DNA of 64,000 nt from a virus (IMGVR_UViG_3300037512_001928:32001-96000); one strand, 5' to 3'; shown: positions 1 through 48,600, counted from the stretch's first letter. The notes: generated by a model not told the origin, from the letters alone. Numbers and translations: made by a program.

Positions 1-439
1 CGCCGTCATTGATCAGGTCAGCCATGTTGGTCAGACCGTTCTGCATCTCAACGATATTGACAACGGGGCGGGTAGAGACGTCCACAGTCTCAATGCTCAC
101 GCTCTTGTTGGCAACCTTGCTGCGGGCAGTGGTCGCGCCCTTCGCCTGAATGTAGGCACGGATGCCCTCCTGACGAATCTTGAACTGCGCCTTGTCGCCA
201 TGGGCAACGCGCTTCACGTCGGCAACCTGGTCCAGCCAGGTCAGCTGGGGACGAATGATTTCGTTGACCGCAAAACCGACCAGCTGCGCGATCTGGTACT
301 TGTTGTTGGGGTTCGGATTGGACGCGAGGTCGCGGATAACCTTGTTCGCGTTTTCGACGTCGTTGGTGTCGATGCGTTCGCCCTTGGCGGAGGCAACACA
401 CATCGCGACAATCTTGTCATTTTTCTTGATCTCAATCAT
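1..439 (-). CDS. Major capsid protein (N-terminal part, runs off window)
   Basis: Open frame from ATG 439 after RBS GGAGG (MIEIKKNDKIVAMCVASAKGERID...); absent from ORF track because it has no stop in the window; follows protease and decoration genes. Confidence 0.8.
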   Translation of the reverse strand, partial: MIEIKKNDKIVAMCVASAKGERIDTNDVENANKVIRDLASNPNPNNKYQIAQLVGFAVNEIIRPQLTWLDQVADVKRVAHGDKAQFKIRQEGIRAYIQAKGATTARSKVANKSVSIETVDVSTRPVVNIVEMQNGLTNMADLINDG

Positions 440-901: not shown

Positions 902-2500
902 TTACTTAGATACAGGACGGAGCATGTCTCCATACTCGTCCGAATCTTTGATATCCATGTCCACATAGGAAGCCATCTGGAAATAGGCAGGAACTTCAGG
1001 CTGGGCGGGAGTTTCATTCTCCGCTTCCTGTTCCGCCATTGTTACCTTCTCCTGTTCCATGGACAGGTTTGCCAGCGTTTCGTAGTTCATCTCGGAAATC
1101 GCAGTCGCAACGTTTTCGGCGTTGACGTCCAGCCCGAGCTTCTCCGCGAAACTCTTGGCGCGGTTCTGTTTCTCAGCCAGCGCCTTTTCGGCTTCGGCTT
1201 TCAGAATCGCGTTATACTTGCTTTCGATTTCTTCCAGTTCGGCAATCCGGTTTTTCAGCTCCGCGATCGTCCGATCCTTCTCGTCCTCTTCAGCTACGGC
1301 ATTGTTCGTGTCATCCACGGTTTCAATCACCGTTTCCCGAACTTCTGTGCGTACGGTCGGAGGTATATCATATTCCGGGCATCCGGCATCGTACGTCTGT
1401 TCAGTTTCAATGGAATGTACGATGACTTCAGCCATCGCATCGGTCTTCCGGGCGTCTTCGGATTCAGCGTCAGGCACAACGATGGTCGCGCTCTGCTGCT
1501 GCTGTCCTCCGCTTCCGGAACCGCCGCCATCTCCGGATCCTGATCCAGAACCGGAACCGCTACCTTCTCCGGATCCTGATCCGGAACCGGAACCGCCGCT
1601 TCCATTACCATCAGTGCCGCCGGTACCTCCAGAACCATTCCCGTCAGTACCTCCGGTTCCGCCGGAACCATTCCCGTCAGTACCTCCGGTTCCGCCGGTG
1701 CCATTGCCATCGGTACCTCCGGTACCATCGCCCTGAGTTTCCGTACCGGTCCCCGTGGCACCGCTGTCTCCGCCTCCGCCATCTCCACCGTCTCCGTCTC
1801 CTTCGGCGATGGTTACCTGCTCAGGCTCGACTTCCGGATTCTCGATCTGTTCCGCATTCATCTGTTCGTTCGGCATTGTCTCACCTCGTTCACCCGTCGG
1901 CTCCCCGTTTTCCCTGAGTTCTGCAACAAGATCCAGCGCCACCGAATCCGGATATGCAGGCTTGCTTACAATCGCAACGCCGCATAGCACGTTATGTGGC
2001 CCAACGTCAATAATCTGTGCGCCCTGCATTGTCAGGTGCGTATCTGCCGGATTGTACTTAACCTCGAAGGAGAAGCACAACAGTCCCTTCTCATACATTT
2101 CGGAAACACATTCACATATCTCGCTTTCACGCTTCGGAATCCGCGCTGTAGCCTGCAAATAGTCAATCCCGTCTTCCGTGATCATCCGGTAGTTGAACAG
2201 ACCGCCGATCTGGGTGGTCTCAAACTGTCCGGTAAATCTGTTGTAGAGATGGGTAAGCTTGTCATATTCCTTTGCCGTAAGCCTTGAAACGTCCGCATAC
2301 AGCGGCAGTGCGACAAACTCATCGTTCCGGCTGACGATGTCGGCAATGAATTCTTTGCTGACACCCTCGTTATTACCGTTGATCTTACTGGTGCACACAA
2401 CCAGATCGATGGTCAGAAACACATCGTTCTCATCGTGTGTATCTTCTGCTATCAAAACTCGGTCGGCAAGAAGCGACAGGCATTTGTCGTTGTCCTTCAT
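902..2500 (-). CDS. Prohead protease / scaffold protein with Gly-rich insert
   Basis: N-terminal HK97-like protease motifs (SFEV, GVAIVSKPAY), acidic coiled-coil C-terminus, position after portal. Confidence 0.75.
   Translation of the reverse strand: MKDNDKCLSLLADRVLIAEDTHDENDVFLTIDLVVCTSKINGNNEGVSKEFIADIVSRNDEFVALPLYADVSRLTAKEYDKLTHLYNRFTGQFETTQIGGLFNYRMITEDGIDYLQATARIPKRESEICECVSEMYEKGLLCFSFEVKYNPADTHLTMQGAQIIDVGPHNVLCGVAIVSKPAYPDSVALDLVAELRENGEPTGERGETMPNEQMNAEQIENPEVEPEQVTIAEGDGDGGDGGGGDSGATGTGTETQGDGTGGTDGNGTGGTGGTDGNGSGGTGGTDGNGSGGTGGTDGNGSGGSGSGSGSGEGSGSGSGSGSGDGGGSGSGGQQQQSATIVVPDAESEDARKTDAMAEVIVHSIETEQTYDAGCPEYDIPPTVRTEVRETVIETVDDTNNAVAEEDEKDRTIAELKNRIAELEEIESKYNAILKAEAEKALAEKQNRAKSFAEKLGLDVNAENVATAISEMNYETLANLSMEQEKVTMAEQEAENETPAQPEVPAYFQMASYVDMDIKDSDEYGDMLRPVSK
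1510..1800 (-). repeat. Gly/Ser/Thr low-complexity tandem repeat (GGTGGTDGNG[ST] x4, then GS runs)
   Basis: 33-nt tandem units visible at about 1600-1730. Confidence 0.9.
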
Positions 2501-2571
2501 TGCGGGTCATCCTTTCAGCAAACATCATACTGTAGGAGGTCAGCAGGTTTGCGTGAGAATGTATGCAAAGA

Positions 2572-2592
2572 AAGCTCCGGAGTCCGGAGCTT
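2572..2592 (-). terminator. Possible intrinsic terminator
   Basis: Inverted repeat AAGCTCCGGA-G-TCCGGAGCTT followed by a T-rich run on the minus strand. Confidence 0.45.
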
Positions 2593-2632
2593 CTTCACGA
2601 CAGTTTTGATATATGATAAACGCTTTTAGGCG

Positions 2633-2716
2633 TTAATCATCGTAATAGTGATATCCTTTGTACATCAGCCATGCCGAAAATGCGGCATAAACTGTTAAAA
2701 CCAATACTTCCGCCAT
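2633..2716 (-). CDS. 27-aa membrane peptide
   Basis: RBS AAGGAG, MAEVLVLTVYAAFSAWLMYKGYHYYDD. Confidence 0.5.
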   Translation of the reverse strand: MAEVLVLTVYAAFSAWLMYKGYHYYDD

Positions 2717-2729
2717 GGTTTCATCTCCT

Positions 2730-4346
2730 TTATGTCAGACTCTGATCGCCGGAGCCGTCTTCCTGACTGGGCTTAGGCTGTGCGCCCGTCTGAGCCTTGC
2801 CTGGATCCGATACCCGTTCATCGTCCGGTTTCTCAGGTCTTCCCTGTTTCCGGTCGGTCTCTGTGTCCGAAGGTTCGCTTGCTTCTTCCGCTTCGTTAGG
2901 ATTGATGCCCGGTTTCACAAACACCTTCGTCTGAACTTTCTCTTCCGTCTCCGCTGCCTTGCGCATCTTTTCCTCATCGTAGTCAAAGCCGTGCGCGTCC
3001 ATCATCGTCTGATAGCTGAGTACGCCCTCTTTCCACAGTTCGAGGCATTTGTCCTGAAAACTCTTGTTATTCGTCAGATCTGTCACAGGGAAAGCGAATG
3101 TCGGCAGTTTCCCGGATGCGGATCGCGGAAGCCCGTTCTCCGTACCGTTTAGCCCGATCCGGATAATCTCGTTCATCATCTGCGCCATCCGGCGTTTGGC
3201 TTCCTGAATCCGGAGTGCAACCATCTTGGTGCTGACCTGACTGCTTCCGAAACTCGCGGCATTGTCCTGACCGGATACCACGATCCCGCTAATCCCGGCG
3301 GCGGAAAGAATGTCGGAGTTGACGCTCGCATACTTGTCATGGTCGAAGATGTGATCGCTCTGCGGCTGAATCACCTTGGCGTCCGCGAAGTTGTTGGTGA
3401 CCGCAAGAGCCACCTTGCTCGAAGCCGTCATCGCCGTAGCAAACAGATCCTGAAGTTTCATCAGCGCTTCCTTGCTGGGGATCACCTGCTTCTCCGGACT
3501 GCCGTAGGTTACATGAATAAAGGAACGCGCCGCGAGGTTGAGAAGCGAATCTTCCCATGCGGAGATCAGTTCCTTCTTCGCGAAAGCTTTCAGACATGCC
3601 GCCACCATCGGGATCGCGTAACGCTGCCAGTCCGGATGCGCGTCCTGAAGCACGAAGGTTGTGCGCGGATTCAGCTGAACCCACTGCGCATTATTCTTCA
3701 GCCCCAGCGCAACCTCGGGCGGATATCCGCTCAGTCGCTTCTCGAGATCCTCGTCCTCAAGGAATTTCTTGTAGGCTTTCATGCCCATCCGCTTCAGGTC
3801 TGTTCTCAGCGTATCGCAGTTGAATTCCACGAGTGGCTGTTTATTGACCCGGATATTCCCGATCCGGCACAGGTGCGGAGGCAGGGAAATGATATCCCCG
3901 TCAGGCTGTACGCTGATGTACAGATTCGCGTACAGGTAGTACTGGAGGAAGAAGCTTTCCAGCTTATCCCACATCCCGATCCGCTTGAAGTATTCCGTAT
4001 ACTTGGCTCTCGCCAGATCGCTCCCGCCCACGAGGCGGAAATCGTCGATCAGGGAGAAGGGAACGTAGACTTCCCGGATTGCGCCCCTGAACATGGGATC
4101 CGCATCCACCCAGTAATCCGCAAGCTGATAAAAGCTGTTAATGCTGTCCTGTTTATTCCGGAGGATCGAATTGTAATTGAACCCGGTCAGGTTTCCGGTA
4201 AAGGTAATATTCCGGTCGTTGTAGGTCTGCGACACATCCTACTGTTTCAGATCCGCCGCAATCGCGATTTCAGGAGGCGCGGGGGTGTCGACCACCGCTG
4301 CCGCCATGGTTTGCCGTCTTGGCATAAGCCAGTCTCTGATGCCCAT
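2730..4346 (-). CDS. Portal protein (in-frame TAG at codon 36, 4239-4241)
   Basis: ATG 4346 has RBS AGGAGG; frame is continuous with the 501-aa ORF except for one TAG; lies between TerL and protease. Confidence 0.8.
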
Positions 4347-4364
4347 GGGACATCCCTCCTTTAC

Positions 4365-6044
4365 TTATAGGAATCCGACCACGCCAACATCCTCCAGAAA
4401 ATTCATGGAGTTCAGCTGGCGTTTCCGTTCTTCTTCCATGCCGCTGATATAATGGACAGCCATCTGAAGCGCGGACGCCCGGTCTTTGTGCTGGCTGCCC
4501 TTCGCGCTGTCGTAAAGCACAGTGCCGTTTGCGCCGGGTCTTCCGACAATCTGCCCAAGCTCGATCTGCAGGGCGTCCATTTCCTTGTAGATCGCAATCT
4601 CTTTATCTGTCAGTTTCTTGTTATCCGATTCATCGTCGCTCATGATCAGATCATTCCCGATAATACGTTTGCTTTGTACCGGGAATTCGATCGTCTTCCG
4701 CTCCAGCGCAATCGTCAGGGCGCTGACCATCTGCTGGTTGAGCGCGTTAGTTGCAATGAAAGGATGGAGCAGAGGCACGGCGTGATCGATCGTGGAAATC
4801 TCCAGATCCGAAACCAGAGGCGGATATTCCTTGCCGCTGGCAGGATCCACCCACGGCACGGACATGAACTGCGGGAATGCGTCCCCGAGTCCCCGGCAGT
4901 CCACGATGACCTTGACCGTATTCGGAAATTCGATCAGCGCTTTCCGGATCTCCACCGCCAGCGCGTCCAGCCGTTTCCCGTGGAAGGTACGGATCTTCAC
5001 AACCTTCTTCAGGTATCCGCCGTTCTCCAGCTCGATCAGTTTGATGATCACGATTGCTGCGTTATCCGCGTTGCTGGCGGAGCTGGTCGCGATGTCCAGC
5101 GCGATGATGTACTGGCTTGCCGAATGCGCGGGCTGTGCAACTTCCACGTCCGTCAGGATCCTGCATTTATCGGTCAGGTCGAAGGGAAACACAGCTCCGT
5201 CCGCGTTCCCGATGAAGATACTCTCGTATTCCATCATGAACTTGGTGCTGTCCATTTCCTTCCGTTCCTTCTCGAAATAAGCCTGTTCCGTAATCCCTGC
5301 CCGGATCGCCGCCCTGTAGTCCATCGCGTAGGCGATCGACAGGTGATCGTATCCGGGTTCGCGCATCTGCGCCAGCGTATTGACAAACATCCGGTAGAAG
5401 TAGTTGTTCTTCAGGCATGCGGATGTGATGGAGATCATCTTACTCGGATAATCCCGGATCCCAAGCTGGATGCACAGGTCGCGGGTCGTGTTCAGGACGG
5501 GGCGGGCAATCGCCTCCAGATCCGCCTGTTTGACTTCCGGCGCTTCGTCGATGACGAGAATCTTGGCGCGGATGCCACGGAAAGTCCCCAGCGAAAAGCT
5601 TTCAATCCAGCTCCCGTTTTTGAAGGTGCACCTTCCTTTATGCGCCGATATCTGAACCAGATGGTTATGCCGGGTGCCGTCCAGCTCCCGGGCAATCTCC
5701 GGATTCTTGGAGAAATAGTTGTCGATCTTTTTGAGTACCAGCACAGCCTGTTCCGCCGTTCCGGAGATGATCGCAATCCCGGACTGCGGATAAAGGATCG
5801 CCATCGCGATACAGCAGATCGCCGTGATCCATGTCTTGCCGAATCCACGGCTCTGCACATCGTAGATTGTATGGTATTTTCCGAAGATCCGCGCCTGTAC
5901 CCGCTGTACGGGCTTGAGCTTGACCTTCAGGTATTCCTCGATAAATACGTCCTAATGGGTTCGCCAGTACCAGATCTGTTTTGTCCACGCCTCGTAATTC
6001 TTCAGCTCGGAGATCTGCGAAAGCCGGTCAGCCTGTGTAATCAT
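4365..6044 (-). CDS. terL: Terminase large subunit (in-frame TAG at codon 31, 5952-5954)
   Basis: Walker A SRGFGKT, Walker B LVIDEA, nuclease ALDIA and KDRASA; ATG 6044 overlaps the upstream TGA (ATGA); Q-motif LKPVQ lies upstream of the ORF-track start. Confidence 0.92.
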
Positions 6045-6910
6045 AGTCTTACATCAGCTCCGATCGCTTTCCATGTATGCTCGTAGTCGTGGAGAACCTT
6101 GTCCACATCGTCATCCGGAAATGTGTACGGATTCTCGTTCAGATATCCCTCCAGCTCAAGTTTCAGGATAATCTCGCCGAGGCTCCCCATCCCGGTATTT
6201 TCCCCGGGCTTTCTCCGGCATGCCGCGAAGTTGGAACTCTTGCTCAGATCGTCGAAGATCATCTGGGCTTCCTTGTATTCCTTCGCCGTGATCTGCCCGC
6301 GCCGCATCTTGTCTTCCGCGATGTCCGCGTTCAGGCTGGCTTTTGCAACCTTCCTCGCATAGTCGCGGATGTTGACGTTATCGAGCACGAAGTCCTGCTC
6401 ATACTGCGCGTAGATATCCTCGAGCATCTTGATCTCTGTCGGCGTGAACCATCCGCGCCAGACCGTATCGTATCTCGGCTTATCGTCCGGATCAGAAAAC
6501 TCGTGGAGCATCTTGTCGCTCGTCTTGTCGCTCGTTGCCCGGACGTTCTCCTCGTACTCGTAGGCATAGTTGGAGTTCATGACGCTGAAGAAAGCCTGAG
6601 CCTACGCCTTGTCGTAGATCTGTTTCTTCTCGTCTTCCGGGACGGTCGGGTCGATATACCTGCGGTTGGTCGACAGCGTGTACTGCGCTTTCTTTTCCAT
6701 CGCCCTCCGTGCCGCATCGTTGATCTTCCGGTTGTTTTCAAACGCGTACTTCTGTAGCGTCTCATTGTCGACCACAAATTTCCTCGCGCAGTCCTTGCAC
6801 CATGCGTCCCGGTACAGCTGGCTTGCCCATTGTTTGTGTGGGAAGAAATCGTCCAGCGGCAGACTGCGGTTGCAGTAAATGCATCTCTTCCCCGGTGTTT
6901 TCTTTCCCAT
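6041..6910 (-). CDS. Probable terminase small subunit with N-terminal Zn finger (in-frame TAG at codon 103, 6602-6604)
   Basis: ORFs 6602-6910 and 6041-6580 are in one frame separated by a single TAG; CxxC...CxxC; translationally coupled to terL. Confidence 0.65.
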
Positions 6911-6985
6911 TTCCTTTGTTCAAGTCCTTTATTCCAAAAATTAAAAAAGACCAGCGCCATCCGAAGATGACGCTTATGTCTTTGG

Positions 6986-8251
6986 TTATAGTAAAATCGG
7001 ATAGACGCACTTGCGTCCGTAGTTTGGCTGCATGATCAGCACGGTCGCGCCCGGCTTGCTGAATCGTCCGAGGCGCTGTGCGAATCCGTCCACCCCGCAC
7101 AGGCTCGGTACGCGCACAATGATGCTGTTCCCGTCCCGCGTGGTTCCGCTTGCAAGCTCTTCCTCATGATGCAGATGCCCGCATACGAAATAGTCGATAT
7201 GCTTCCCGTATACGTTGACCGCGTCCCGGCAGATATCCGAAATCCTGCCGCCCTGTCCGTGAAGCATCAGAAATTTAAACCCTGCGACTTCCGCGTACTG
7301 GTAGTTGCCTGTCAGCTCATGAACCTGAATCATCGGCTGATATCCTGTCAGCTTTTCGTACAGGTACCAGTTGATGATCTTGACCATGTTGTCCTTCGGG
7401 AAATCCCCGGCTTTGCTTCCGAGCGGTCTGACCTCGTCATGATTCCCGCCGACCATATACAGATCGATAGGAAGCCCCGTCCGATCCTGCAGATCCCTGA
7501 CCCACTGCGCGAACATCTCGCTGAAGTAGATCGTGGAATCCACAATCCCGTACTGCAGGTTCTGGAGCTGACTCATTCTCAGCATCCCGGCGATACAGTC
7601 CCCGACCAGCATGATATGAATCCGCCCGACCTGCTCGTCCCGCGCAATGTCGCATGCGCGTTTCAGAAGCATGCTCATCCGCTGATGGCATACTTCCTCG
7701 TCATAGTAGTTGATTACTTCGTCCAGCAGTCCCCGTACATCGATAACCTCGCCAAAATGAATATCACCCAGAGCGATCACCATCTCGCCATCGGTGGAAA
7801 CTTTCAGCTCGGTGCCGTCGCCGACTGTAAAATCCTTCAGGTAGACGCCATGGGTTCGCGCCGCGTCGATGACGGCTTCCCGGAGCAGGGCATCCCTGGC
7901 TTCCGCCCGGTAAACCTTGTTGTTCTCGCGGGCAAGGTCGCGCAGTTTCTGCCGTTGTATATAATCAACAGCCTCATCTCTGAAGCTGGGGTTTTCTTCG
8001 ACTGTTTGCTGGTCTTCCGTCACGCCCATCATGATCTGCGGCGCTTCGTCCCGGCTGCGCAGGACGTTTGCGTCATACGCAAGCTTGACGCCGACTCCGG
8101 CTTTCCGCAGGGTATCGCCGCTCATGTCCAGATCGTAGGACGCGACAATGTCCGCCCATTCGTCCTAAAGCTCGCCGTTCTTCTTGCGAACCATGTCGTA
8201 GACAAGATCCGCTTTTTCCTTCGGAGTCAGTTCCTCGATGAGTCTCGCCAT
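6986..8251 (-). CDS. Calcineurin-like metallophosphoesterase (in-frame TAG at codon 29, 8165-8167)
   Basis: DIH, GD, GNHD, HG and GHLH motifs; ATG 8251 with RBS AAAGGAG. Confidence 0.85.
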
Positions 8252-8283
8252 GCTGTTCTCCTTTGTTTTCCTTTATTCGTATC

Positions 8284-8335
8284 AAGACTCTGTATCAAGC
8301 TCCGCTAGCTATGGAATATTTGCTGCAAGAGTCTT
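8284..8335 (-). ncRNA. CAGCA-motif small RNA candidate, copy 1
   Basis: Terminal stem AAGACTC/GAGTCTT followed by TTGCAGCAA. Confidence 0.5.
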
Positions 8336-8341
8336 CAATAA

Positions 8342-8418
8342 TGGTACCGCCGGAGAGACTTAAACTCTCAGTCACACCGGGTTAGAATCGGCTCCGTCTT
8401 TCGTTGCGGCACGGCGGC
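8342..8418 (-). tRNA. Amber suppressor tRNA (anticodon CUA), Leu-like
   Basis: Cloverleaf: acceptor GCCGCCG/CGGCGGT, A73, encoded CCA; anticodon loop TTCTAAC (CTA = 8385-8383); T arm GAGAG-TTTAAGT-CTCTC. Confidence 0.88.
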
Positions 8419-8427
8419 ATATGTAAC

Positions 8428-8514
8428 TCGATGCTGTTAAAAGGCACCCCGAAGGGCGCGGATAGTAGATCAAACTATCAATTATGTCATGTATGAACTT
8501 GCTGTTAGCATCGA
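8428..8514 (-). ncRNA. CAGCA-motif small RNA candidate, copy 2
   Basis: Stem TCGATGCT/AGCATCGA followed by AACAGCAA; internal hairpins including a UUCG tetraloop. Confidence 0.55.
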
Positions 8515-8518
8515 AAAA

Positions 8519-8833
8519 TCAGTCACGCCTGTAGTCGGCATACTTTTTATAGATACACCGGTCTGGGAGCAGATCATCTTCACCAATCAGATCTCCGCGA
8601 AACGCATGTCTCAGCATCCGGTTGTTGTAACCTTTGCGGAATCTCCCAAACTCAGTCTGGTTAATCGGGCTGTACCTGACCCGGCTGTTCTCCCTGAAAT
8701 CCGGGTTATGCGCCAGAACGTCCGCCTCGGTCTTGCAGAACCGCAGACTCCCGAACTGCTTGATGACTCTGCCGCGGTCACGCCTCTTCGACAGCCGCTT
8801 CCGCTGATACCTGTTCAGATGAAGCATCGCCAT
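8519..8833 (-). CDS. Basic hypothetical protein
   Basis: RBS GGAGG, Arg/Lys-rich ORF. Confidence 0.55.
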   Translation of the reverse strand: MAMLHLNRYQRKRLSKRRDRGRVIKQFGSLRFCKTEADVLAHNPDFRENSRVRYSPINQTEFGRFRKGYNNRMLRHAFRGDLIGEDDLLPDRCIYKKYADYRRD

Positions 8834-9578
8834 CATCTCCTCCCTGAATGGAAACATTGTCCCAGTCCTCAGGTTTGGGCTGTACCATATCTCCGGGAAT
8901 CATCTCTCCCTTCATATCGTACCACTGACCGCCGCATCGGTAGATCCGATCCATATCGTAGAGCGCATCGCAGTTCCCGTTCCGGAATCGCACGATCTTC
9001 ACGCGGTACTTCTCCGCATAAACAACCCATTCCGTTTTCCCGTCGCTGAAGGTTCCGTCCGTCCGAACCGTATACCGCTCCATCGGAGCCATATCGTGTT
9101 CCTGCCGGATATCACGGAATCTTTGCCGGAGGCTCGGCTTCTTCTCCCGGGTAACGCGCTGCGCTTTCCGCCGCCGGACGCGATCGTCCAGCATCTCCGT
9201 CATCGCCCTGAAGCTGAGTTGTTCTTCGGTTGCCGTATCGCCGCTGGATCCGCCGGATGCATAAAGCAGATTGCTGATATCGCTCGGGCAGGACGAGACC
9301 GGAATCTCCCGCGCCTCTCCGACAGCTTCCTTGTAGTCGGATACGATCCCATCCATATTTCCGTACAGCAGGAAATATCCGATACTGTCCAGCATGCGTT
9401 TGACGCGCTGTTCCGGAGAGAAAACTTCTTCTCCGTTATCGTTCAGCCAGTTGCGGTCGCAGTAATCCTCCCACCCGTTCTAAATGTCCCGGGCGGTATG
9501 AAGCATCTCGTCAGTTGTTCCGGATTTCAGCGTCAGGGTTCTGCCGTTTGGTAACCATACTTTGTAGCCTGTTGCCAA
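8778..9578 (-). CDS. Hypothetical protein (in-frame TAG at codon 33, 9480-9482)
   Basis: TTG 9578 after a purine-rich RBS; frame continuous with the 205-aa ORF except for one TAG. Confidence 0.65.
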
Positions 9579-9642
9579 GGAAAAACACCCTTCCCTTATA
9601 TACTATTAAATGAAACCCCAAAAATGCAGACAAAACGGGGAT

Positions 9643-10038
9643 TTACAGCGCGGAGCAGGGTTTGTCGCTGTGGCAGGCTTCCCACCTGCGGTTGTTCTCA
9701 GCCGTGATCTTCTCGACCGCCCGGTCGAACATCTCATTGGAAGTCTGCCGCGCATGCCCTAGATATTCCGCGATATCGCTCAGTCCGTATCCCTGCATCA
9801 GGTAGCTGACAATCAGCTTCTCCGTCTGACTCAGCCCGCACGTCTCGATCAGCATATCCAGATCGATGTAGGTGCAGACCACATCCTCGTTCAGCGGAAA
9901 CACGCCCTCCGTGTCCAGCAGGTTTCCCTGAAAGAGTCCGGGCAGATAGGATTCATCGCACTCAGATCTCTTCAGGATCTACTCCCTGACCACGCGGGCT
10001 TCGCTCAGGGGTGTGTATGCAAAACGGGAATCCCTCAA
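9643..10038 (-). CDS. Sigma-70 region-4-like HTH protein, candidate late regulator (in-frame TAG at codon 20, 9979-9981)
   Basis: LSQTEKLIVSYLMQGYGLSDIAEYLG HTH; TTG 10038 after AAAGGTG. Confidence 0.7.
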
Positions 10039-10052
10039 TTCACATCACACCT

Positions 10053-10367
10053 TTAAGCCTCGGTTTCATCAGCTTCCTGAGATTTCCGGAGCTGTTCCTT
10101 CAGCGCCCTGATTTCAGCCCCGCTCTGCGCCAGCGCCGCTTCCATGGCTTCGTTGGCTTCGCGCAGTTCATCCAGCTCTTCACTGCTCACGCCGTCGGAC
10201 TTGACGCCTTTCAGCGCGTCCAGAATCATATCGATATTGTCGAGAAGCAGGTTCTTTACCCGCTCTCTGGCTCTCTGCGCAGGATTGCCGCTGTCGATCG
10301 TGGCCTGCATGACGTCTCGCTCTGTAGCCAGCACGTTATAAACTTCATTCGTAGTCATGAACATCAT
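10053..10367 (-). CDS. Coiled-coil hypothetical protein
   Basis: ORF with RBS AAGGAG. Confidence 0.7.
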   Translation of the reverse strand: MMFMTTNEVYNVLATERDVMQATIDSGNPAQRARERVKNLLLDNIDMILDALKGVKSDGVSSEELDELREANEAMEAALAQSGAEIRALKEQLRKSQEADETEA

Positions 10368-10373
10368 CTCCTT

Positions 10374-11045
10374 TTAGATATGACAGTCGTACAGACTGAC
10401 GAAGCAGTCCCTGTCGCTGTCAATGAAAGCCTTCCACTCTTCCCAGTAAGCGTCCCGGCTTTTGGCTGTATCGTCTGAGATCGCAAACCACCCGACCTTC
10501 CCCGGCGCATGCCATACCCCGTCCGGAGTAACAAACGCATAAGGCGTTGGCGGTCTCAGCATTTCCTTGACCCACTGTTCTTCCGTCCCGTAGGATTCCA
10601 GGTAGTATTCCGGAAGCCAGAATCCGTCCCCTTTGGTCGAGTACTGCTTCCATTCCTCCCGAAGCTCCGCCTCGGAATGCTTCGTTGGATGGTAATACCA
10701 GTCGACCTGAGACTTGTGGAAATGCCCGAAATCATCTGAAAACTGCTCGCCCTCTTTCATCTGATATTCGTCTTCGATCCACAGTTCGGTACAGTAATCA
10801 TATCGGGTGTTGGGATTATAAAAATTTCCCCACTGCCCGGTACTTTCATCGTAATGGTAATGTTCCTCCCGGTAATGCTCGTAGGTCCATGTCGGATTCA
10901 TCGCGCTGAACTTCTTCCATGCCTCGTCGATTTCTTCCTGACTGACCTGCTCGAACACAAAGTAGTCCCGGTTGGTTTCGCTGTACGGAAGTAATAGCCT
11001 GTCCGGGTCTTTGTCGTGAAATACAACAATTCTGTAATGACTCAT
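10374..11045 (-). CDS. Hypothetical phage protein
   Basis: ATG 11045 after GGAGG; MSHY...TPDGVWH...G..GWF...DCHI pattern. Confidence 0.75.
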   Translation of the reverse strand: MSHYRIVVFHDKDPDRLLLPYSETNRDYFVFEQVSQEEIDEAWKKFSAMNPTWTYEHYREEHYHYDESTGQWGNFYNPNTRYDYCTELWIEDEYQMKEGEQFSDDFGHFHKSQVDWYYHPTKHSEAELREEWKQYSTKGDGFWLPEYYLESYGTEEQWVKEMLRPPTPYAFVTPDGVWHAPGKVGWFAISDDTAKSRDAYWEEWKAFIDSDRDCFVSLYDCHI

Positions 11046-11159
11046 TTCATAACCTCCAAAAATCAAATTGGGTCTGTCGGCGCATGGGACGCCGACAGAC
11101 TTTCCCCTGACCGAAAAGGAGGATCTCACATGAGTCCGGCTACCCCTTCCAGACCCAGT

Positions 11160-11233
11160 AGCCGACAGTCAGACTTGCACTGACAGCCTGCGCTTTACAA
11201 GTGCGCCGCTCTTTCTCGTTGAGCTATGTCGGC
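11160..11233 (-). tRNA. tRNA-Thr(UGU)
   Basis: Acceptor GCCGACA/TGTCGGC, D stem GCTC/GAGC, anticodon loop CTTGTAA, T arm GTCAG/CTGAC; CCA not encoded. Confidence 0.85.
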
Positions 11234-11238
11234 AGATC

Positions 11239-11274
11239 AAAAACGGGGAGCAACACCTTGTTGCATCGCTCCCC
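11239..11274 (-). terminator. Possible intrinsic terminator
   Basis: GGGGAGCGATGC/GTGTTGCTCCCC hairpin followed by GTTTTT. Confidence 0.5.
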
Positions 11275-11386
11275 ATTCGCTGTAATAATTCTCACCGGTA
11301 CATCCGTAAGTTTTGGAAAGGAACAGATATGATCGGAATAATTACTGCAGCACTTTTTCCTGATTCTGTAGAATTTCCACAACGCT

Positions 11387-11661
11387 CAGGACAAAGCGAA
11401 CGGTGGACCCCGGGCATCTCACCCAGCCCATGGCGGTTTTTACTCCCGCTGGAGACCGGCAAAGACCTGCCGCGCTTCTATGGGCATCAGCAGACCCCGC
11501 CGGGGAGCGTGGTCGCTAACCTCACTCCGTCGCCCGTTTGAGATCCGGACGCACGATCGCTGTTCAGGGCTACGCTGTGTGACAGGCACCGGGCGGCACT
11601 CCGGCTTGATCCGACTGCGCTGTCGGATGGGACTTCGCGCTCCGCCTGATTCCCCGTCCTG
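11387..11661 (-). ncRNA. Unassigned structured RNA candidate, about 275 nt
   Basis: GC-rich, no credible ORF, ends pair (CAGGAC/GTCCTG), several internal hairpins. Confidence 0.4.
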
Positions 11662-11675
11662 TTTTTCACCCTTGC

Positions 11676-11858
11676 AAGACACGTTTTAGCCACAAAGATT
11701 ACGATTCTTCTGCATGATGGTTGCTGTGAGTGTCTTAAAAAGCCAGACGCATCTTAAAGAATTGCAGTCTTTTTCAGCATTTGCTGTCAGCGCCTGAGAG
11801 ATTCAGCCAAGACGCAGTTTGTTCTCTTAGCTCAGAAACAAAATCGCTGGATGCGTCT
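11676..11858 (-). ncRNA. Three tandem CAGCA-motif small RNA candidates (11676-11736, 11744-11796, 11810-11858)
   Basis: Stems AAGACAC/GTGTCTT, CAGGCGC/GCGTCTG and AGACGCA/TGCGTCT, each followed by ACAGCAA or CCAGCGA. Confidence 0.55.
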
Positions 11859-12133
11859 CTTGCTGTTTTCATCGCGGAGGTGGCAGTCCGGTCGGCGCGA
11901 TCGTCGCCGCCGTCAATCCACCGCATCCCTGAAAGATTTCACAACCTTGTTTTTCCCATGGAATGGGGCGTTGCGGGTTGGTCCCCGCAGTGTTCTTCCG
12001 TACGGGCGCTATTTTCTTTTCGCCTTTTACACGCTCCGCCCATCCAAAGCACTGGGCAAACCGCTCTGTTCTTGGCTATCCGCGACTCTGTAAGCGCGTG
12101 AGGTTCTTCCGCGCAAACATACATCATCATATC

Positions 12134-12329
12134 TCGGCACAAAAGAATGAAGGAGGAAAGAAGGTCCATGCGTACAAAGATACTTCTTCGTTTTCATGTA
12201 AGTATGCTGTGTGTGCCGAAAATAGAATACTCATTTCAAAAAAAACGCGATGCATTGACCGTGCGCCATCGAAAGGAGCGAAAGGGCGCAGAAGAAACCT
12301 TACTTAAGAAAAACTGCTGTGAGCATCGC
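12134..12329 (-). ncRNA. Two CAGCA-motif small RNA candidates (12134-12219, 12247-12329)
   Basis: Stems TCGGCACA/TGTGCCGA and GCGATGC/GCATCGC followed by CACAGCA. Confidence 0.5.
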
Positions 12330-12356
12330 AAAGGGGGAAAGGAGGAAAATGACCAA

Positions 12357-12647
12357 TCAGGAAAGATTCCTGTTGTCCGCATAAACCCTGTTCTCCGCTT
12401 TCTCGTACGTGTCGAGGTACCACTCGCGTTTGTCCCCGTTGTATGTCAGCTCAAACAGGCGCTCGTCAGGATAGTTCGTAGCAAGAATATACTTCCAGTT
12501 CTGAAGCGACTTGCATTTCCAGACCACAAACACCGTATATGATTTCCGGAATTGATCCGGATCCGTTGCGGCGGAAGGAACATAGACGCGCTCATACATC
12601 CAGTCCCGCACAATGTTCTGTGCGATCTGATCCATGTTGTCCGCCAT
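12357..12647 (-). CDS. DUF6275-like phage protein
   Basis: VFVVWKCKSLQNWK...ELTYNGDK.EWYLD.Y.K pattern. Confidence 0.65.
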   Translation of the reverse strand: MADNMDQIAQNIVRDWMYERVYVPSAATDPDQFRKSYTVFVVWKCKSLQNWKYILATNYPDERLFELTYNGDKREWYLDTYEKAENRVYADNRNLS

Positions 12648-39470: not shown

Positions 39471-40100
39471 ATGACACTCACACCCGCAGAAGAAGGAAGA
39501 CTCGTATCCCAGTACGCGGCTGAACTGCGCCGTATCTCGATGCCGCTGTACCGTACGTACCGGAACAAGTACGGAGTCGGCGTCACGTTCGACGATGTAT
39601 ATCAGGAAGTCCTGATCGAGTTCCTGTATCACATCCGGAACATCGAATCGGAGGATCAGATCTATCCCCTGCCCTATTTTAAGTTCAGGCTGGCGGTATG
39701 TCGTATCATCATGCGCAGTCTGCCCGTGACGGTACCGATCCGGACAACGGATTTCTCCAAACGCATCCGCGAGTACAGCACATGCTGTTCGATCGACGAT
39801 ATGATTGAGCGCGGGTATGATTTCAGCGGCGGAATTGACAGAACGTACTCCGAAGTGAATGAGCGCGTGTCGTTTCAGAAGTTTCTGGACGAATGTTCGT
39901 ACAATGATGCCAATATTCTGATTGCCTACAGGGATCTGGGCAATATGGCTGAAGTTGGCAAGCGTCTGAACATCAATAAGTCGACAGTGAGCCGTACAAT
40001 CGAGCGTTTGAAGAAAAAATATCTCGCAGATTGCCGGAAAATGCAGAAAAACAGTATATCGAGGAGGAAAGAAGATGAATTTTATGGAAGCAATGGGTGA
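39471..40100 (+). CDS. Phage RNA polymerase sigma factor
   Basis: Region 2 FDDVYQE, region 4 HTH MAEVGKRLNINKSTVSR. Confidence 0.75.
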   Translation: MTLTPAEEGRLVSQYAAELRRISMPLYRTYRNKYGVGVTFDDVYQEVLIEFLYHIRNIESEDQIYPLPYFKFRLAVCRIIMRSLPVTVPIRTTDFSKRIREYSTCCSIDDMIERGYDFSGGIDRTYSEVNERVSFQKFLDECSYNDANILIAYRDLGNMAEVGKRLNINKSTVSRTIERLKKKYLADCRKMQKNSISRRKEDEFYGSNG

Positions 40101-41601
40101 AGAGCTGGTTCGTGGCAAAAATAATGTTTCCGTCACGGAAAACGGCGCTGTGGGGTACCGTACGACCGGAAAAGCGCTGTTGGATCTGAATTATGCAGTG
40201 TCCAGCCTCCGGAATGCGCCGGAAGAAAAGATTATGACCATGTTTTCCAACGCCTGTGTAGAAAATCCGGACTTGGCGATGCTCTGGCTGTTCATGGCGA
40301 GAGATCCGCGGGGCGGCATGGGTGAAAGGCGGCTTTTCCGCGTCTGTTTCGCCTATCTGATGCGGAATTTCCCGGAAAAGGCTGAAAAACTGGTTCCCCT
40401 GATCCCGGAATTCGGTCGCTGGGACGATGTGATTGACATGTACTTCGCCTGCAATGACGAGCAGCTGAAAAAGAGCATCTTCGCTGTGATTTTTGATCAG
40501 CTGAACGATGATACGAGCAACATGATTGCAAATAAGCCCATCAGCTGTCTCGCGAAGTGGCTCCCGTCTGAAAATACGTCCTCCATGAAGAGCCGGAATC
40601 AGGCGAGAGCGATAATCAAGACGATTCATACGAATCCGAGGCAGTATCGCAAGCTTCTCTCTGCGCTCCGTGGCTATATCGATGTTGTAGAGCGCAAAAT
40701 GTCCGCCGGAAACTGGGATAAGATCAGGTACAGCGCCGTTCCGTCCCGCGCCAACCTGATTTACAAGGATGCTTTCCTGAAGCATGACCGGGAACGGCGC
40801 GAAGAGTTCCTGGAATCGCTGAAATCCGGCGAAACCAAGATCAATGCGTCAACGCTGTACCCGCATGAGATCGTTGCAAAGTATACGAACGACTACAGGA
40901 CTAGGCTGAAGCTTGACGATACCCTTGAGGGACTTTGGAATCATCTGCCGGATGCGTTTAAGGACAATCCTGAGATCATGGTCGTTGCGGACGGCTCCGG
41001 ATCCATGACATGGGCGCGTCTTGGTGAGCATACAACGCCTCTGCATGTGGCGAACGCGCTTGCGATTTACTTTGCCGAGCGTCTTGCCCCGCCGTATAAG
41101 AATCAGTATATCACCTTCTCCTCCTCCCCGCAGTTTGTCAGGTTCCCGGATGGTGCGACGCTGCGTGACAGGATCGCGATCGCGCTGGAACACTGCGAGT
41201 GCTCGAATACCAATCTCAAAAAGGTCTTCGATCTCGTTCTGGCTACGGCGAAGATGAACCATGCGAAGCAGGAAGACCTGCCAAAGACAATCCTCGTGAT
41301 CTCTGATGGCGAGTTTGACGAGATGAACGACCGTGCCCTGAATGAGAAGAGCTTCGATGTGATCCGCCGCGAATACAACAACGCCGGGTATCAGATTCCG
41401 AAGCTGGCTTTCTGGAATGTGGCATCCCGTACGATGACGATTCCGGTGATTGAGAATCCGATGGGCGTATCGCTGATCTCCGGCTACTCCCCCACCGTCA
41501 TCCGGATGGTGCTTTCTGGCAAGCTCGACCCCTACGAGGCGATGGTATCCATGCTGATGGAAGACAGGTATCGCCCCGTCCGCGAGGCGCTTGAATGCTG
41601 A
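40075..41601 (+). CDS. DUF2828-family TROVE/Ro60-like protein with C-terminal vWA domain
   Basis: TENGA, RDPRGGMGER, FGRWDD, AKWLP, MIDAS DGSGSM, ISDGEFD, FWNV. Confidence 0.8.
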   Translation: MNFMEAMGEELVRGKNNVSVTENGAVGYRTTGKALLDLNYAVSSLRNAPEEKIMTMFSNACVENPDLAMLWLFMARDPRGGMGERRLFRVCFAYLMRNFPEKAEKLVPLIPEFGRWDDVIDMYFACNDEQLKKSIFAVIFDQLNDDTSNMIANKPISCLAKWLPSENTSSMKSRNQARAIIKTIHTNPRQYRKLLSALRGYIDVVERKMSAGNWDKIRYSAVPSRANLIYKDAFLKHDRERREEFLESLKSGETKINASTLYPHEIVAKYTNDYRTRLKLDDTLEGLWNHLPDAFKDNPEIMVVADGSGSMTWARLGEHTTPLHVANALAIYFAERLAPPYKNQYITFSSSPQFVRFPDGATLRDRIAIALEHCECSNTNLKKVFDLVLATAKMNHAKQEDLPKTILVISDGEFDEMNDRALNEKSFDVIRREYNNAGYQIPKLAFWNVASRTMTIPVIENPMGVSLISGYSPTVIRMVLSGKLDPYEAMVSMLMEDRYRPVREALEC

Positions 41602-44966: not shown

Positions 44967-45660
44967 ACATCTGTTTGATCAGTTGTATTGTCAGGGTTAC
45001 TTCGCCGCCGTCATGGATGTAAAGAGGCTGATCAGCGGTGCGCGGTATGTGCTGAAGTTCAATCACAGGAAACTGACCGACAAGCGTCTGGATCGTCTGA
45101 TTGATTTTTTGATTGCCCAGCATATCATTATCCGCGATGATCCATCCTGCAGTATCTCGTACGTTCCCGCCAAAGATCAGTGGTGCCTCTTCAATTTTGA
45201 GACTGGCAAGACGATTGCGAGTGAAGGCGATGGCTGATTTTAATATTCAGGAATATCAGGCGGGGTATACAAAGGCGCTGCTTGATGTGTATGAAATCTT
45301 TTCGCAGTATGACAGACAGATGTCAAAGCTTCGGATCATCAGTGCTCCGGCGTCCGAGAAGATCCGTAAGATCATGGACGCCATGATTGCCGCCCGGTAT
45401 GACTGTATGAAGTACGGCGTAAAGGATATGAATCTCGTGTTGACCAAGGATCATAAGTTCCGGCTGAAAAGGAAGGAGCCTGAAAAATGAAGGGCAAAGT
45501 AGTTGAAACCATCTTTATTAACGATTCCGATGCGACTGTGGACAAGCTGATTGTCTGGCTGCAGAGTCTTCCGCCGAATACTCCGGTTCCTTCCGATATA
45601 ACCTTCGCCTACAGCTATGAGAAGGAAAAGTTCTTAGTGCTTTCACTGGAGGATTTATGA
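44956..45660 (+). other. Three small hypothetical genes
   Basis: Coupled ORFs ending at 45237, 45490 and 45660. Confidence 0.55.
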
Positions 45661-48600
45661 AGAATTACTGCGTTTATCATTTACACAGTGATTTATCTCT
45701 TCTGGATTCCACCACCAACTTTAAGGATTATGTCAACAAAGCGGTCGAGTCAGGGATGACCGCCATTGCCTCGACCGAGCATGGGCTTCCGCGATCGTGG
45801 GTTGAAAAGAAACTGTACTGCGATGAGAAGGGGATCAAATTTATTCACGGTGTTGAGATCTACCTGACCGAGGCGTTGGAGCCAAAGGTTCGTGACAACT
45901 ATCATACGATTCTGCTTGCGAAGAACATCGAAGGTGTGCATGAGCTGAACCGCCTGATTGAATTGTCTTCCCGTCCCGATCATATGTATTACAGCAACCG
46001 GCTTTCCTTTGATGAGTTCCTGGCGATATCGTCGAACATCATTAAGATCAGCGCGTGCCTTGCATCTCCGTTGCGTAGGCTCCCGCCGTATCATGAGCGC
46101 TTCCGCGAACTGCTGAAACATTATGATTACCTCGAAGTTCAGCCGCACAGCAACGAGGAACAGGCTGATTACAATCGTAAGCTGATGCATTATTCAGATA
46201 CGTTTGGAATCCCGCTGATCGCCGGTACGGATACGCATTCGCTGAATCAGTACAAGGCTGAGTGCCGTGATATTCTGATGTGGCGCAAGGAGCAGTTCTA
46301 TCCCGGCGAGGAAGGTTTTGACCTGACGTGGCATTCCTGCGATGAACTACTGCATGCGTTTCAGGTTCAGAATGCACTGCCTCCTGCGGTGTATCTTGAA
46401 GCGATCGAAAATACAAACGTTATGGCTGATAGCGTCGATAATTTTGAGCTTAATAAAAGTATCAAGTATCCAATCCTTTACGGATCGCCGGAGAATGATA
46501 CAAAGAAACTGCACGAAGTTGTATGGCGTAAGCTTGACGAAAAGCTTGAAACCGGGATTATTCCACGGGAGCAGGAACAGGGATTCCGCGATGCGATCAG
46601 TGAAGAATTCCGGGTCTTTGAAAAGATCGGTATGAGCGGGTTCATATTATGCATGCATGAACTTCTTTCATGGTGCCGTGATTCCGGGATGTATATCGGA
46701 CCCGGACGCGGTTCTGTTGGCGGTTCCCGTGTCGCGTACGTTGCCGATATTATCGACATTAACCCTGAACAGTGGAACACAAACTTTGCAAGGTTTGCAA
46801 ACGAGGACAGAAAAGAAATAGGTCGAACGATGGCCTACGTTGGCTGAGAAGCCTCCGAAAAAATATCCATTGAATTGCTGGGACACCCTGAGAGCCGTCA
46901 AGCTACAACGTGCGGATGAAAGACGCCGGAGCGTGAATGCCTGAGAATCTGACGGATTGGGCAATCAGCAGCGAAACTCCGAATAGGAGAACGTTCAACG
47001 ACCATCCCTTTGGGAGTACATCGCAAGCGCGATGGAAGTGGTGGACATCCTTCGGGATGAAGATATGGTCTGTGCTTTATGGAAACATAAAGGGTGAAAA
47101 CCTGCCCGGGGTAGCGCCTGGTATGTGTGTGTAAATGGTAAGGAAGGAGGTGAGTAGTTATGGGTAAAGTGAAAGATTTGACCGGGATGAAGTTTGGAAG
47201 ATGGACTGTCATTCACGAAGTTGGGCGTAATAAGTCTGGCGGTGCGACATGGTTGTGTCAGTGTGAATGCGGGACTATGCGTGTATTAGATGGACGGTCT
47301 TTACGTGAACATACGAGTAAATCCTGCGGTTGTTTAGTTAAAGACCCTTCATATGTACATTGTAAACCAAATCTTAAACATGGCGGGAGAAATGAGAGAT
47401 TATACCAAGTATGGCGTGGTATGATTGATCGGTGCCACAATCAAAAGAACAAGTATTATCCGTGTTATGGTGCTCGTGGTATTACAGTATGTGATGAATG
47501 GCGATATGATTATGCTGTATTTCGTGAGTGGGCGATGAGTCATGGATATGATCCAAACGCTAAGAAATATGATTGTACTATTGATCGTATTGATAATGAT
47601 AAAGGCTATTCTCCAGAGAATTGTGCATGGCATAATCAAGTTGAGCAGTGTAATAACCGATCAAACAATCATATCATAACCTTCAATGGTGAGTCACACA
47701 CCATTTCTGAATGGGCAAGAATGGTTGGATTAAGCAAGGATACATTGCGACGTCGGATTGAAAATTATGGATGGACAATCGAAATGGCCCTGACTACTCC
47801 AAACACACACACTGCATAACACTTCAGGACATCGACGTGGATGTAGTTGATTCTGATCGTCCTGCAATCTTTGAGCATATCGAATCAAAGTTCGGTAAAC
47901 CTTATACGGGTCGTGTCGCGGCATATGGTACGATTCAGTCCCTGGCATTTATCGACGATGTGGGCGGCGGTCTTGCAAACAAATGGGAATGGGAGCACAA
48001 CCCTGACAAGTTCAATGAATCCCGGCATATAAAAATCAAAGGCGATTATGATCCTGCGAATCCGTTTACGCTGAAGCGTATCGCTGAAATCAAAGCCGCA
48101 TATAAACAGGATCAGGATGCCGCCATGGCGCGTTATCCTGAGATCTTCCGGTATTATGACGGCTTGGTCGGTACAAGAGTATCGCAGTCGATTCATCCTG
48201 CCGGGATCGTCATCTCCCCTCTTGTCCTTGACGAAGAATATGGTGTGTTCAACAAAGACGGCGAACGCTGTTTGTTGTTGAATATGGACGAGCTTCACGA
48301 GGTTGGCGCTGCGAAGTTCGACTTTCTGATCCTGAAAACCGTAACGGTTATTCGCGATTGTTATGCGCTGATGGGTAAACAGCCGCCGAGAATGCATGAA
48401 GTCAACTGGGATGATCAAAAGGTTTGGGCTTCCATGGCGTCGGATGCGAATTCCATCTTCCAGTTTGAATCCGACTTTGCTGCTGAATCCATGAAGAAAT
48501 TCAAGCCCAAGTCAATCTTTGATTTATCCATGGTGACTGCGGCATTGCGTCCATCTGGAACGTCATATCGTGATCAGCTGTTTGCACATATTCCGCATCA

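Follow-up and report, generated by a model that had tools for sequence, protein, structure and literature searches.

Genes and features of the late cluster

The stretch of DNA analysed in this study (the window, 64,000 nucleotides) is taken from one virus contig of 107,217 bp, IMGVR_UViG_3300037512_001928, and covers its bases 32001-96000. The subject of the study is a group of genes at window positions 2730-10038, each with one in-frame TAG codon, and a predicted suppressor tRNA with a CUA anticodon, tRNA(CUA), that lies among them. Positions refer to the window except where genome coordinates, which differ from the window ones, are named. The contig has a G+C content of 48.9% and an estimated completeness of 94% (CheckV). 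Late and virion genes occupy the minus strand at about 1-52 kb of the genome, and the plus strand carries the replication genes, which encode a tyrosine recombinase, SSB, a primase-helicase, a split DNA polymerase III (Pol III) alpha subunit and the anaerobic NrdD.

When TAG was read through, six genes of the window (table 1) became single open frames with exactly one in-frame TAG each, at the codons reported in an initial annotation of this DNA. The first TAG-bearing gene of the late cluster encodes a small helix-turn-helix (HTH) protein. The C-terminal part of its structural model resembles sigma region 4 structures (weak E-values, TMt 0.65-0.76), and searches of Pfam and NCBIfam gave sub-threshold matches to sigma70_r4 and GerE and no match to region 2. 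The HTH protein is a putative late activator.

The product of the neighbouring gene (positions 8778-9578) matched no Pfam or PHROG family. None of its 28 database homologues was named or had a Pfam family, and a wide structural search with its model (pLDDT 62) returned generic helical matches only (Z ≤6). The TerS-like protein has an N-terminal zinc ribbon, and the stop codon of its gene overlaps the TerL start; judged by gene position alone, it is probably the small terminase. The capsid-like gene extends across the left edge of the window, with its single TAG 44-46 nt before the window start.

Table 1. Positions of the genes, RNAs and sequence elements discussed in the text (window coordinates unless marked genome; E, E-value).
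Feature	Position (strand)	In-frame TAG	Basis or remark
Capsid-like gene, 332 aa	genome 31441-32439 (-); window 1-439 is its 5' part	codon 162	phrog_4088, E 1.4e-38
Portal, 538 aa	2730-4346 (-)	4239-4241, codon 36	phrog_2739 portal, E 3.5e-18
TerL (large terminase), 559 aa	4365-6044 (-)	5952-5954, codon 31	Pfam Terminase_6N, E 3e-8
TerS-like, 289 aa	6041-6910 (-)	6602-6604, codon 103	phrog_3314 (function unknown), E 2e-20
Terminator-like hairpin and T run	6953-6974 (-)		Between exonuclease-like and TerS-like genes; pattern match only
Metallophosphoesterase/exonuclease-like, 421 aa	6986-8251 (-)	8165-8167, codon 29	Pfam Metallophos, E 3.9e-5; phrog_284 exonuclease, E 6e-48
Hairpin element AAGACNC..CAGCAA..GNGTCTTG	8284-8335 (-)		Directly 3' of suppressor tRNA; conserved
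Suppressor tRNA, anticodon CUA, 77 nt	8342-8418 (-)		A73, encoded CCA, 3-bp D stem, variable region about 6 nt
Hairpin element, further listing	8428-8514 (-)		
Two overlapping sigma-70-like promoter candidates	8462-8508 (-)		Just upstream of suppressor tRNA; consensus match
Conserved phage protein, 266 aa	8778-9578 (-)	9480-9482, codon 33	Translation
Sigma-region-4-like HTH protein, 131 aa	9643-10038 (-)	9979-9981, codon 20	PHROG 'sigma factor' phrog_3512, E 3e-7
tRNA-Thr	11160-11233 (-)		
Rfam cow-rumen-3 RNA match (RF03083)	11402-11528 (-)		64.8 bits, E 2.5e-13; below gathering score 86.7
DUF2828 / DUF7788 / vWA protein	40075-41601 (+)		Early block
Pol III alpha, first part	45657-46847 (+)		
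222-codon frame	47154-47819		Between the Pol III alpha parts
Pol III alpha, second part	47771-49756 (+)		
PhoH-like gene	genome 100,578-101,564 (+)		L050:78-1064; outside window

Translation across the TAG codons

The genome was compared with 25 relatives from the IMG/VR database (TerL 52-71% identical) and with contigs of Clostridia metagenome-assembled genomes (MAGs), cited here as L or G with a number. The absence of a tRNA or of a TAG refers to the stretch fetched. G001 and G002 are contigs of L019 and L021, and G003 (85 kb) is a contig of L023.

Each gene could be aligned as protein with the IMG/VR relatives from residue 1 onwards, which shows that the parts ahead of the TAGs are conserved coding sequence; in the exonuclease-like gene, the N-terminal segment ahead of the TAG is conserved in the homologues. 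The extended starts have sequences resembling ribosome-binding sites, or are coupled to the preceding gene, with an ATGA overlap with the upstream stop in TerS/TerL, as the initial annotation had described. According to code 11, the first start codon of TerL is reached only at the Walker A motif (codon 63). Over the whole genome, every called gene stops with TAA or TGA and none with TAG, which extends to all genes what had been noticed for the core genes, and no TAG occurs in the last half of any frame.

The codons are also present in sequence assembled elsewhere. Logan contigs from two runs of the probable source sample, which are not independent of the assembly, showed zero differences over window positions 2700-10100 (k-mer depth 31 and 20). 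Small contigs of a second study span the TAG sites of the portal and TerL genes with no difference listed there, and a contig of a third study matches the tRNA over positions 8352-8418. On the evidence of these sequence comparisons, the TAGs are read through as sense codons.

Distribution of TAG in the genome

Twelve validated sense TAGs were counted in the whole genome, each in a different gene and all on the minus (late) strand. Six of these genes lie outside the window, namely the capsid-like gene (codon 162), four small head-region genes (codons 14, 14, 23 and 33) and one tail gene (codon 20). The initial annotation had described the set as packaging genes, which is too narrow, as it spans the sigma-like regulator, the head genes and one tail gene. 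Its view that recoding is sparse rather than wholesale applies to the complete genome, with one TAG per gene. Reading the genome by code 11 loses 1257 nt, or 1.17% of its length.

The TAGs are strongly biased towards the 5' ends of genes. Ten of the 12 fall within the first 36 codons; the same ten of 12 in the first 40 codons compare with 13.8% of the Leu codons (binomial P = 1.3e-7). The occurrence of all 12 in distinct genes (P = 0.02) and the finding of zero TAG in the four genes of at least 600 codons, which hold 40% of the Leu codons (P = 0.002), also depart from expectation. Other Leu or rare codons have 10-25% of their occurrences in the first 40 codons and thus show no such bias. In the relatives G001 and G002 (about 35 TAGs each), 41-50% of the TAGs lie in the first 40 codons. 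A purine follows the TAG in 11 of the 12 genes of this genome, and a purine in the 3' context favours suppression in Escherichia coli suppression studies.

No TAG was found in the integrase, SSB, primase-helicase, DnaE or NrdD genes. The initial annotation had listed the large replication genes and the visible capsid segment as free of TAG; this holds for the large plus-strand replication genes but not for the capsid-like gene as a whole, which has its TAG just outside the window.

A supposed 13th TAG gene, at genome 100803-102272 (-), was rejected as a shadow of the PhoH-like gene on the plus strand. In the PhoH-like gene, 33 codons separate an upstream ATG from the region with similarity to PhoH families, and three in-frame TAGs fall within this interval. 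These TAGs probably lie in a leader, the alternative being a TAG-bearing N-terminal extension. Several other in-frame TAGs in plus-strand frames are located upstream of scored or homologous gene starts and were not counted. A crude count of stop codons over long open reading frames (ORFs) was uninformative owing to shadow ORFs.

The suppressor tRNA

The tRNA(CUA) of the initial annotation was recovered by ARAGORN. The Rfam tRNA model misses it, even at E-values up to 10 on a 281-nt slice, and the ARAGORN call was kept because of synteny and covariation. Among 13 very divergent copies, compensatory changes occur in 16 of the 17 stem pairs, with CUA and A73 invariant. All suppressor tRNAs of the comparison have A73, a 3-bp D stem and a D loop of 10-11 nt. 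Their lengths vary: in L001-4, L007-9, L014, L015/17 and L024, and in the G006 copy, the tRNA is 84-89 nt long. Five of the long tRNAs were drawn by ARAGORN with a paired variable arm, and those of L008 and L014 with a long variable region that is not paired; several suppressors, including that of the present genome, have short variable regions. L017 also carries a 75-nt short-arm tRNA-Leu(UAA). Among the traits of type II tRNA-Leu, A73 and the 3-bp D stem with a long D loop are thus present in the suppressor of this genome, and the long variable arm is absent.

The elbow of this tRNA is odd, with no G18G19 and with the T loop UUUAAGU. It shares this property with the tRNA-Thr of the phage: the D loops of the two tRNAs lack GG (CAACGAAAGA and CAACGAGAAAGA), and the T loop of tRNA-Thr is UGCAAGU, compared with UUCRANY. 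An odd elbow was also seen in the suppressors of L009 and L020.

The two promoter candidates upstream of the suppressor are the only minus-strand promoter-like matches in positions 2500-12500, where the total count of matches is not above that in shuffled sequences. A terminator-like hairpin (pattern match) precedes the tRNA. The hairpin element on its 3' side is closed by the stem AAGACNC/GNGTCTT, has (A/G)CAGCAA immediately inside the 5' arm, and follows the suppressor within a few bases in the present genome and in L001, L005, L007-L010, L014, L020 and L024. In some copies of the element the inner loop resembles an anticodon arm (CTGTTAATC). No HDV-like (hepatitis delta virus-like), theta or other Rfam family matched the tRNA flanks or the hairpin element.

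The position of the tRNA relative to its presumptive targets varies within the clade, since an 86-nt tRNA(CUA) of G006 (G006:C59:291007-291092, corresponding to L073:11007-11092) sits among early-strand replication genes and not in the late cluster.

Amino acid inserted at TAG

Gene families of this genome were aligned with those of the relatives, and columns that contain a TAG were termed well conserved when conservation among the TAG-less sequences was at least 80%. Nineteen of 20 such columns had Leu and one had Asp. For this genome, Leu occupied the TAG column in all homologues of TerL (14/14), the HTH protein (9/9), the capsid-like protein (13/13) and g28103 (10/10). The TAG column of the 8778-9578 product had L, I or V in full-length database homologues, and that of the portal had Ile in the nearest relatives.

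All candidate residues were also scored at the TAG columns with BLOSUM62, and Leu ranked first in every subset. In this genome (10 columns) Leu scored +6.4, followed by Met (+1.6), with Gln at -6.9. The relatives with a short-arm tRNA (23 columns) gave +14.6 for Leu, +9.1 for Met as the runner-up and -18.6 for Gln, and those with a long-arm tRNA (39 columns) gave +90.5 for Leu, +55.2 for Ile as the runner-up and -63.3 for Gln. These alignments indicate that TAG most likely specifies leucine and not glutamine, the residue that the initial annotation had adopted from known recoded phages. The Leu codons found at TAG columns in the relatives mirror overall Leu usage, with no excess of TTG, and give no clue to the mutational path.

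The phage genome contains no release factor gene, no RF2 gene and no class-I synthetase gene of the Leu/Ile/Val/Met type. Because the phage encodes no such synthetase, the host leucyl-tRNA synthetase (LeuRS) would have to charge the suppressor, and probably does so.

Conservation among relatives

The tRNA(CUA) is syntenic in most relatives. Nearly all of them have a TAG in the HTH homologue, at site 20, 27 or 40 (L024 has both 20 and 27), the exceptions being L018 and G001/G002, whose homologue is distant (about 29% identical). For the 8778-9578 gene, a TAG is present in the homologue of every relative except L008 and L018, at site 9, 17, 18, 33 or approximately 36-43. In a sub-clade that comprises L005, L007, L008, L009, L014, L020, L023 and others, the loci inspected (4-22 kb) have no TAG in the TerL, portal, TerS, exonuclease and head genes, and tRNA(CUA) is kept in synteny. 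In about ten relatives TAG is confined, within these loci, to the HTH gene and its 8778-9578 neighbour. On the longer contig G003, the same two genes and one further gene (TAG at codon 34) are affected.

A single early TAG is common to seven genes of this genome and the sister group L001-4, with an identical site in TerL only. The TerL site is also TAG in L019/L021, and its sharing needs two changes on the TerL tree. L018 and L052 have neither a tRNA(CUA) nor a TAG in the stretch fetched. The comparison that the initial annotation had proposed was therefore borne out, with early TAGs kept in these genes by relatives that have the tRNA and absent from the two that lack it there. The conservation of an early TAG per gene while the site itself turns over appears, from these alignments, hard to explain without selection.

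A tRNA-Met(CAU) was found in both L018 (3646-3717) and L052 (135-205), and in L018 it occupies the syntenic place of the suppressor; a swap of tRNA cargo at one locus is possible. On the short MAG contigs L054 and L056 no tRNA(CUA) was seen; the slot between the two genes is absent there, and another location of the tRNA is possible.

Host and lifestyle

An alignment-based contig scan found relatives in Clostridia MAGs from ruminant and other guts (Ca. Faecivicinus, Aristaeellaceae and Eubacteriales), where an earlier contig scan with a single TerL sequence had found none. In a 300-kb Eubacteriales MAG contig, one relative occupies about 205-294+ kb, and the adjoining 160-205 kb has no match to the phage. 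Another relative is classed as a provirus, and the present genome has a tyrosine recombinase gene. The plasmid-like prophage suggested in the initial annotation is a candidate lifestyle for this phage. One MAG that holds a contig of a relative encodes both release factor 1 (RF1) and RF2, with binning as a weak host link. The sequence was traced to runs of bovine gut metagenomes, and no RNA run was listed for it. Clostridia of the rumen or gut are the putative hosts in the explanation proposed below.

Proposed mechanism and alternative explanations

We interpret these results, with modest confidence, as a Clostridia phage in which a sparse UAG sense codon is read by a phage-encoded suppressor of leucine type, which would make a regulator and the virion genes dependent on this tRNA. 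The suppressor would be charged by host LeuRS and would compete with host RF1 at UAG. With too little charged suppressor, translation would end after 13-35 residues in ten of the genes, leaving a cheap and harmless peptide, and failed suppression might expose the mRNA to polarity or decay. With enough suppressor, full-length proteins would be made. The regulator, its neighbour and ten downstream packaging, head and tail genes would each need the tRNA, and such an arrangement could act as a feed-forward checkpoint. In the initial annotation the TAGs were regarded as a translational switch. The sparse, suppressor-dependent design of such a switch agrees with the single 5'-proximal TAGs and their conservation in the clade, and a role in temporal timing is plausible.

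A more specific version, which we put forward tentatively and hold to be somewhat short of probable, is that the few-codon code operates as a circuit. The leucine-type suppressor would be needed for the sigma-like late regulator and again for each head or packaging gene, in the manner of a feed-forward AND gate, and the 5' TAGs would limit failed products to short peptides, perhaps with polar loss of mRNA. The minimal set of one tRNA and two or three TAGs would then be the ancestral or core state, and a fuller recoding with TAG = Leu would develop from it.

Several observations weigh against the proposal of a leucine-inserting, tRNA-dependent gate. The column at codon 29 of the exonuclease has Asp in 17/17 homologues and is the sole conserved column that does not fit Leu; five other TAG columns of this genome are variable, and two genes gave no informative alignment. 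The short variable arm, the lack of G18G19, the odd T loop and the Rfam miss make the charging identity less certain than for the long-arm relatives. The promoter of the tRNA is a consensus match only, and the tRNA gene is itself part of the TAG-bearing cluster on the late strand; the tRNA may therefore be made together with the genes it should gate. The lock could also be leaky, because a start codon closely follows the TAG in three genes (at most two codons after it): ATG comes at once (TAG ATG) in two small head genes, at genome 28493-28495 and 31320-31322, and the portal has a GTG two codons after its TAG (positions 4239-4241). Termination and reinitiation after the TAG could there yield N-terminally shortened products. 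Finally, the early position of the TAGs could reflect purifying selection against costly late truncation, with no regulation.

The strongest alternative is an incipient or drifting code change without a regulatory role. In a phage with a Leu suppressor, TAG would enter by drift as a further synonym for Leu, and inefficient suppression would let it persist where truncation costs little, with a single copy close to the start of a gene and none in long genes. The continuum among the relatives, from 2-3 to about 35-45 TAGs per genome, speaks for drift, and the low copy number per gene and the absence from giant genes fit a multiplicative yield cost. Drift does not explain why deeply diverged relatives have an early TAG in the same two genes at shifting sites (20/27/40 and 9/17/18/33), or why many relatives retain a structurally selected tRNA gene for just two or three codons, and we consider it unlikely, though a serious competitor.

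It is less likely still that the early TAG serves as a constant attenuator, with the tRNA always present during late transcription and the codon scaling down output to set stoichiometry. The tRNA is indeed within the late cluster on the same strand, and enzymes and low-copy parts (TerL, portal and exonuclease) have early TAGs. Against this, the high-copy capsid-like gene also has a TAG, ribosome-binding site strength could set stoichiometry without a dedicated tRNA, and the conserved targets are the regulator and its neighbour.

A standard code-15 phage, with TAG read as glutamine, is very improbable. Glutamine is the reassignment reported in the literature for TAG-recoded phages, and it occurs in a minority of sequences at three variable TAG columns of this genome. 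No TAG column has a Gln majority, the Gln scores are negative where those for Leu are positive, and all suppressors have A73 and a Leu-like D arm. Bacterial tRNA-Gln typically has G73 and U1-A72.

The view that the TAGs are genuine stops or assembly errors, with genes that start downstream, are split or are pseudogenes, can be dismissed almost entirely: a downstream start is available to every gene in code 11, but genuine stops conflict with the conservation of the upstream segments as protein, with starts of their own, and with the loss from TerL of all sequence before Walker A, errors conflict with the identical re-assembly of the probable source runs and the agreement of the second study at two TAG sites, and both conflict with the recurrence of TAGs at homologous or nearby sites in relatives.

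Other features of the genome

The coding sequence of the DNA polymerase III alpha subunit is divided between two ORFs that lie about 900 nt from each other, and a frame of 222 codons comes between them. In the relative G003 it is a single fused gene (1091 aa), and on this ground the split looks like an insertion of the intron, intein or homing-endonuclease type. The early block also encodes a DUF2828 / DUF7788 / vWA protein. The match to the cow-rumen-3 RNA has tRNA-Thr on one side and a cluster of small hairpin elements on the other.

Significance and comparison with known systems

The timing of late genes by stop codon recoding has been proposed for phages and never shown, and the clade described here is a minimal, countable version of it. 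This genome has 12 TAGs, one of them in a candidate late regulator, and some relatives have just two or three, so that the hypothesis is testable with a few point mutations and one tRNA. Code 11 misannotates the N-termini of such phage genes, including those for TerL, the portal and the capsid-like protein.

Gut phages recoded at TAG ('code 15') and provided with suppressor tRNAs are known from the crAss-like, Lak, Garnet and Topaz groups (bioRxiv 10.1101/2021.08.26.457843; PMC9523058). A role of recoding in the regulation of late gene translation has been proposed for them (bioRxiv 10.1101/2021.08.26.457843; PMC9523058), and only TAG-to-Gln and TGA-to-Trp have been seen in phages whose code differs from that of the host (bioRxiv 10.1101/2021.08.26.457843). 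The present phage resembles the code-15 phages in having its own tRNA(CUA), in-frame TAGs in late or structural genes with none in replication or integrase genes, and a host that presumably uses the standard code. It differs from them in the apparent insertion of Leu, in having 12 TAGs that are 5'-proximal and single in each gene, in a regulator gene as the conserved target, and in the absence of an RF2 gene. A non-exhaustive literature search found no report of TAG = Leu in phages or of a 5' bias in TAG position; other reports mention Gln or an unknown residue.

A published screen for recoded phages by coding density used a threshold of about 10%. Read-through raises coding density here by far less than this, and since code 11 costs the genome just 1.17% of its length, density-based screens would miss this phage. 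It would thus represent a class of recoded genomes that is invisible to such screens, with about 1% of the coding sequence affected.

Suppressor tRNAs, tRNA(Sup), associated with theta ribozymes in recoded gut phages have predicted isotypes of Gln, Trp, Ile and Tyr, and CCA is encoded in 4.5% of the theta-ribozyme-associated tRNAs (PMC10879173). The arrangement in this genome is similar in that a suppressor lies among phage genes with a conserved structured element on its 3' side, and dissimilar in that the tRNA encodes its own CCA and its flanks have no HDV-like match. TAG is likewise read as Leu in the chlorophycean and Scenedesmus mitochondrial codes (NCBI tables 16 and 22), but there the change is organelle-wide, with no evolutionary link to the phage and no gating pattern.

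A leucine-inserting amber suppressor is also known as supP (leuX) of E. coli, a laboratory mutation of a host tRNA in which a tRNA-Leu with a long variable arm acquired the CUA anticodon. LeuRS does not read the anticodon, and A73 is the key identity element, which is why supP works. The phage suppressors are likewise probably of leucine type, and differ from supP in being natural phage genes, several of which have shortened variable arms.

The nearest functional analogue, by its design, appears to be the bldA system of Streptomyces. The bldA gene encodes a tRNA-Leu(UAA) that reads UUA, a codon which is absent from housekeeping or early genes and usually occurs once in genes for regulators or late functions. 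The distribution of TAG in the phage fits such a system, with one dedicated tRNA, probably of leucine type, and with a TAG in the HTH gene across most of the clade. In Streptomyces a regulator whose gene has the codon stands at the top of the cascade, a place that the HTH protein may take in the phage. The phage system differs in being viral and in using a stop codon, so that shortage of the tRNA would lead to termination and not to stalling.

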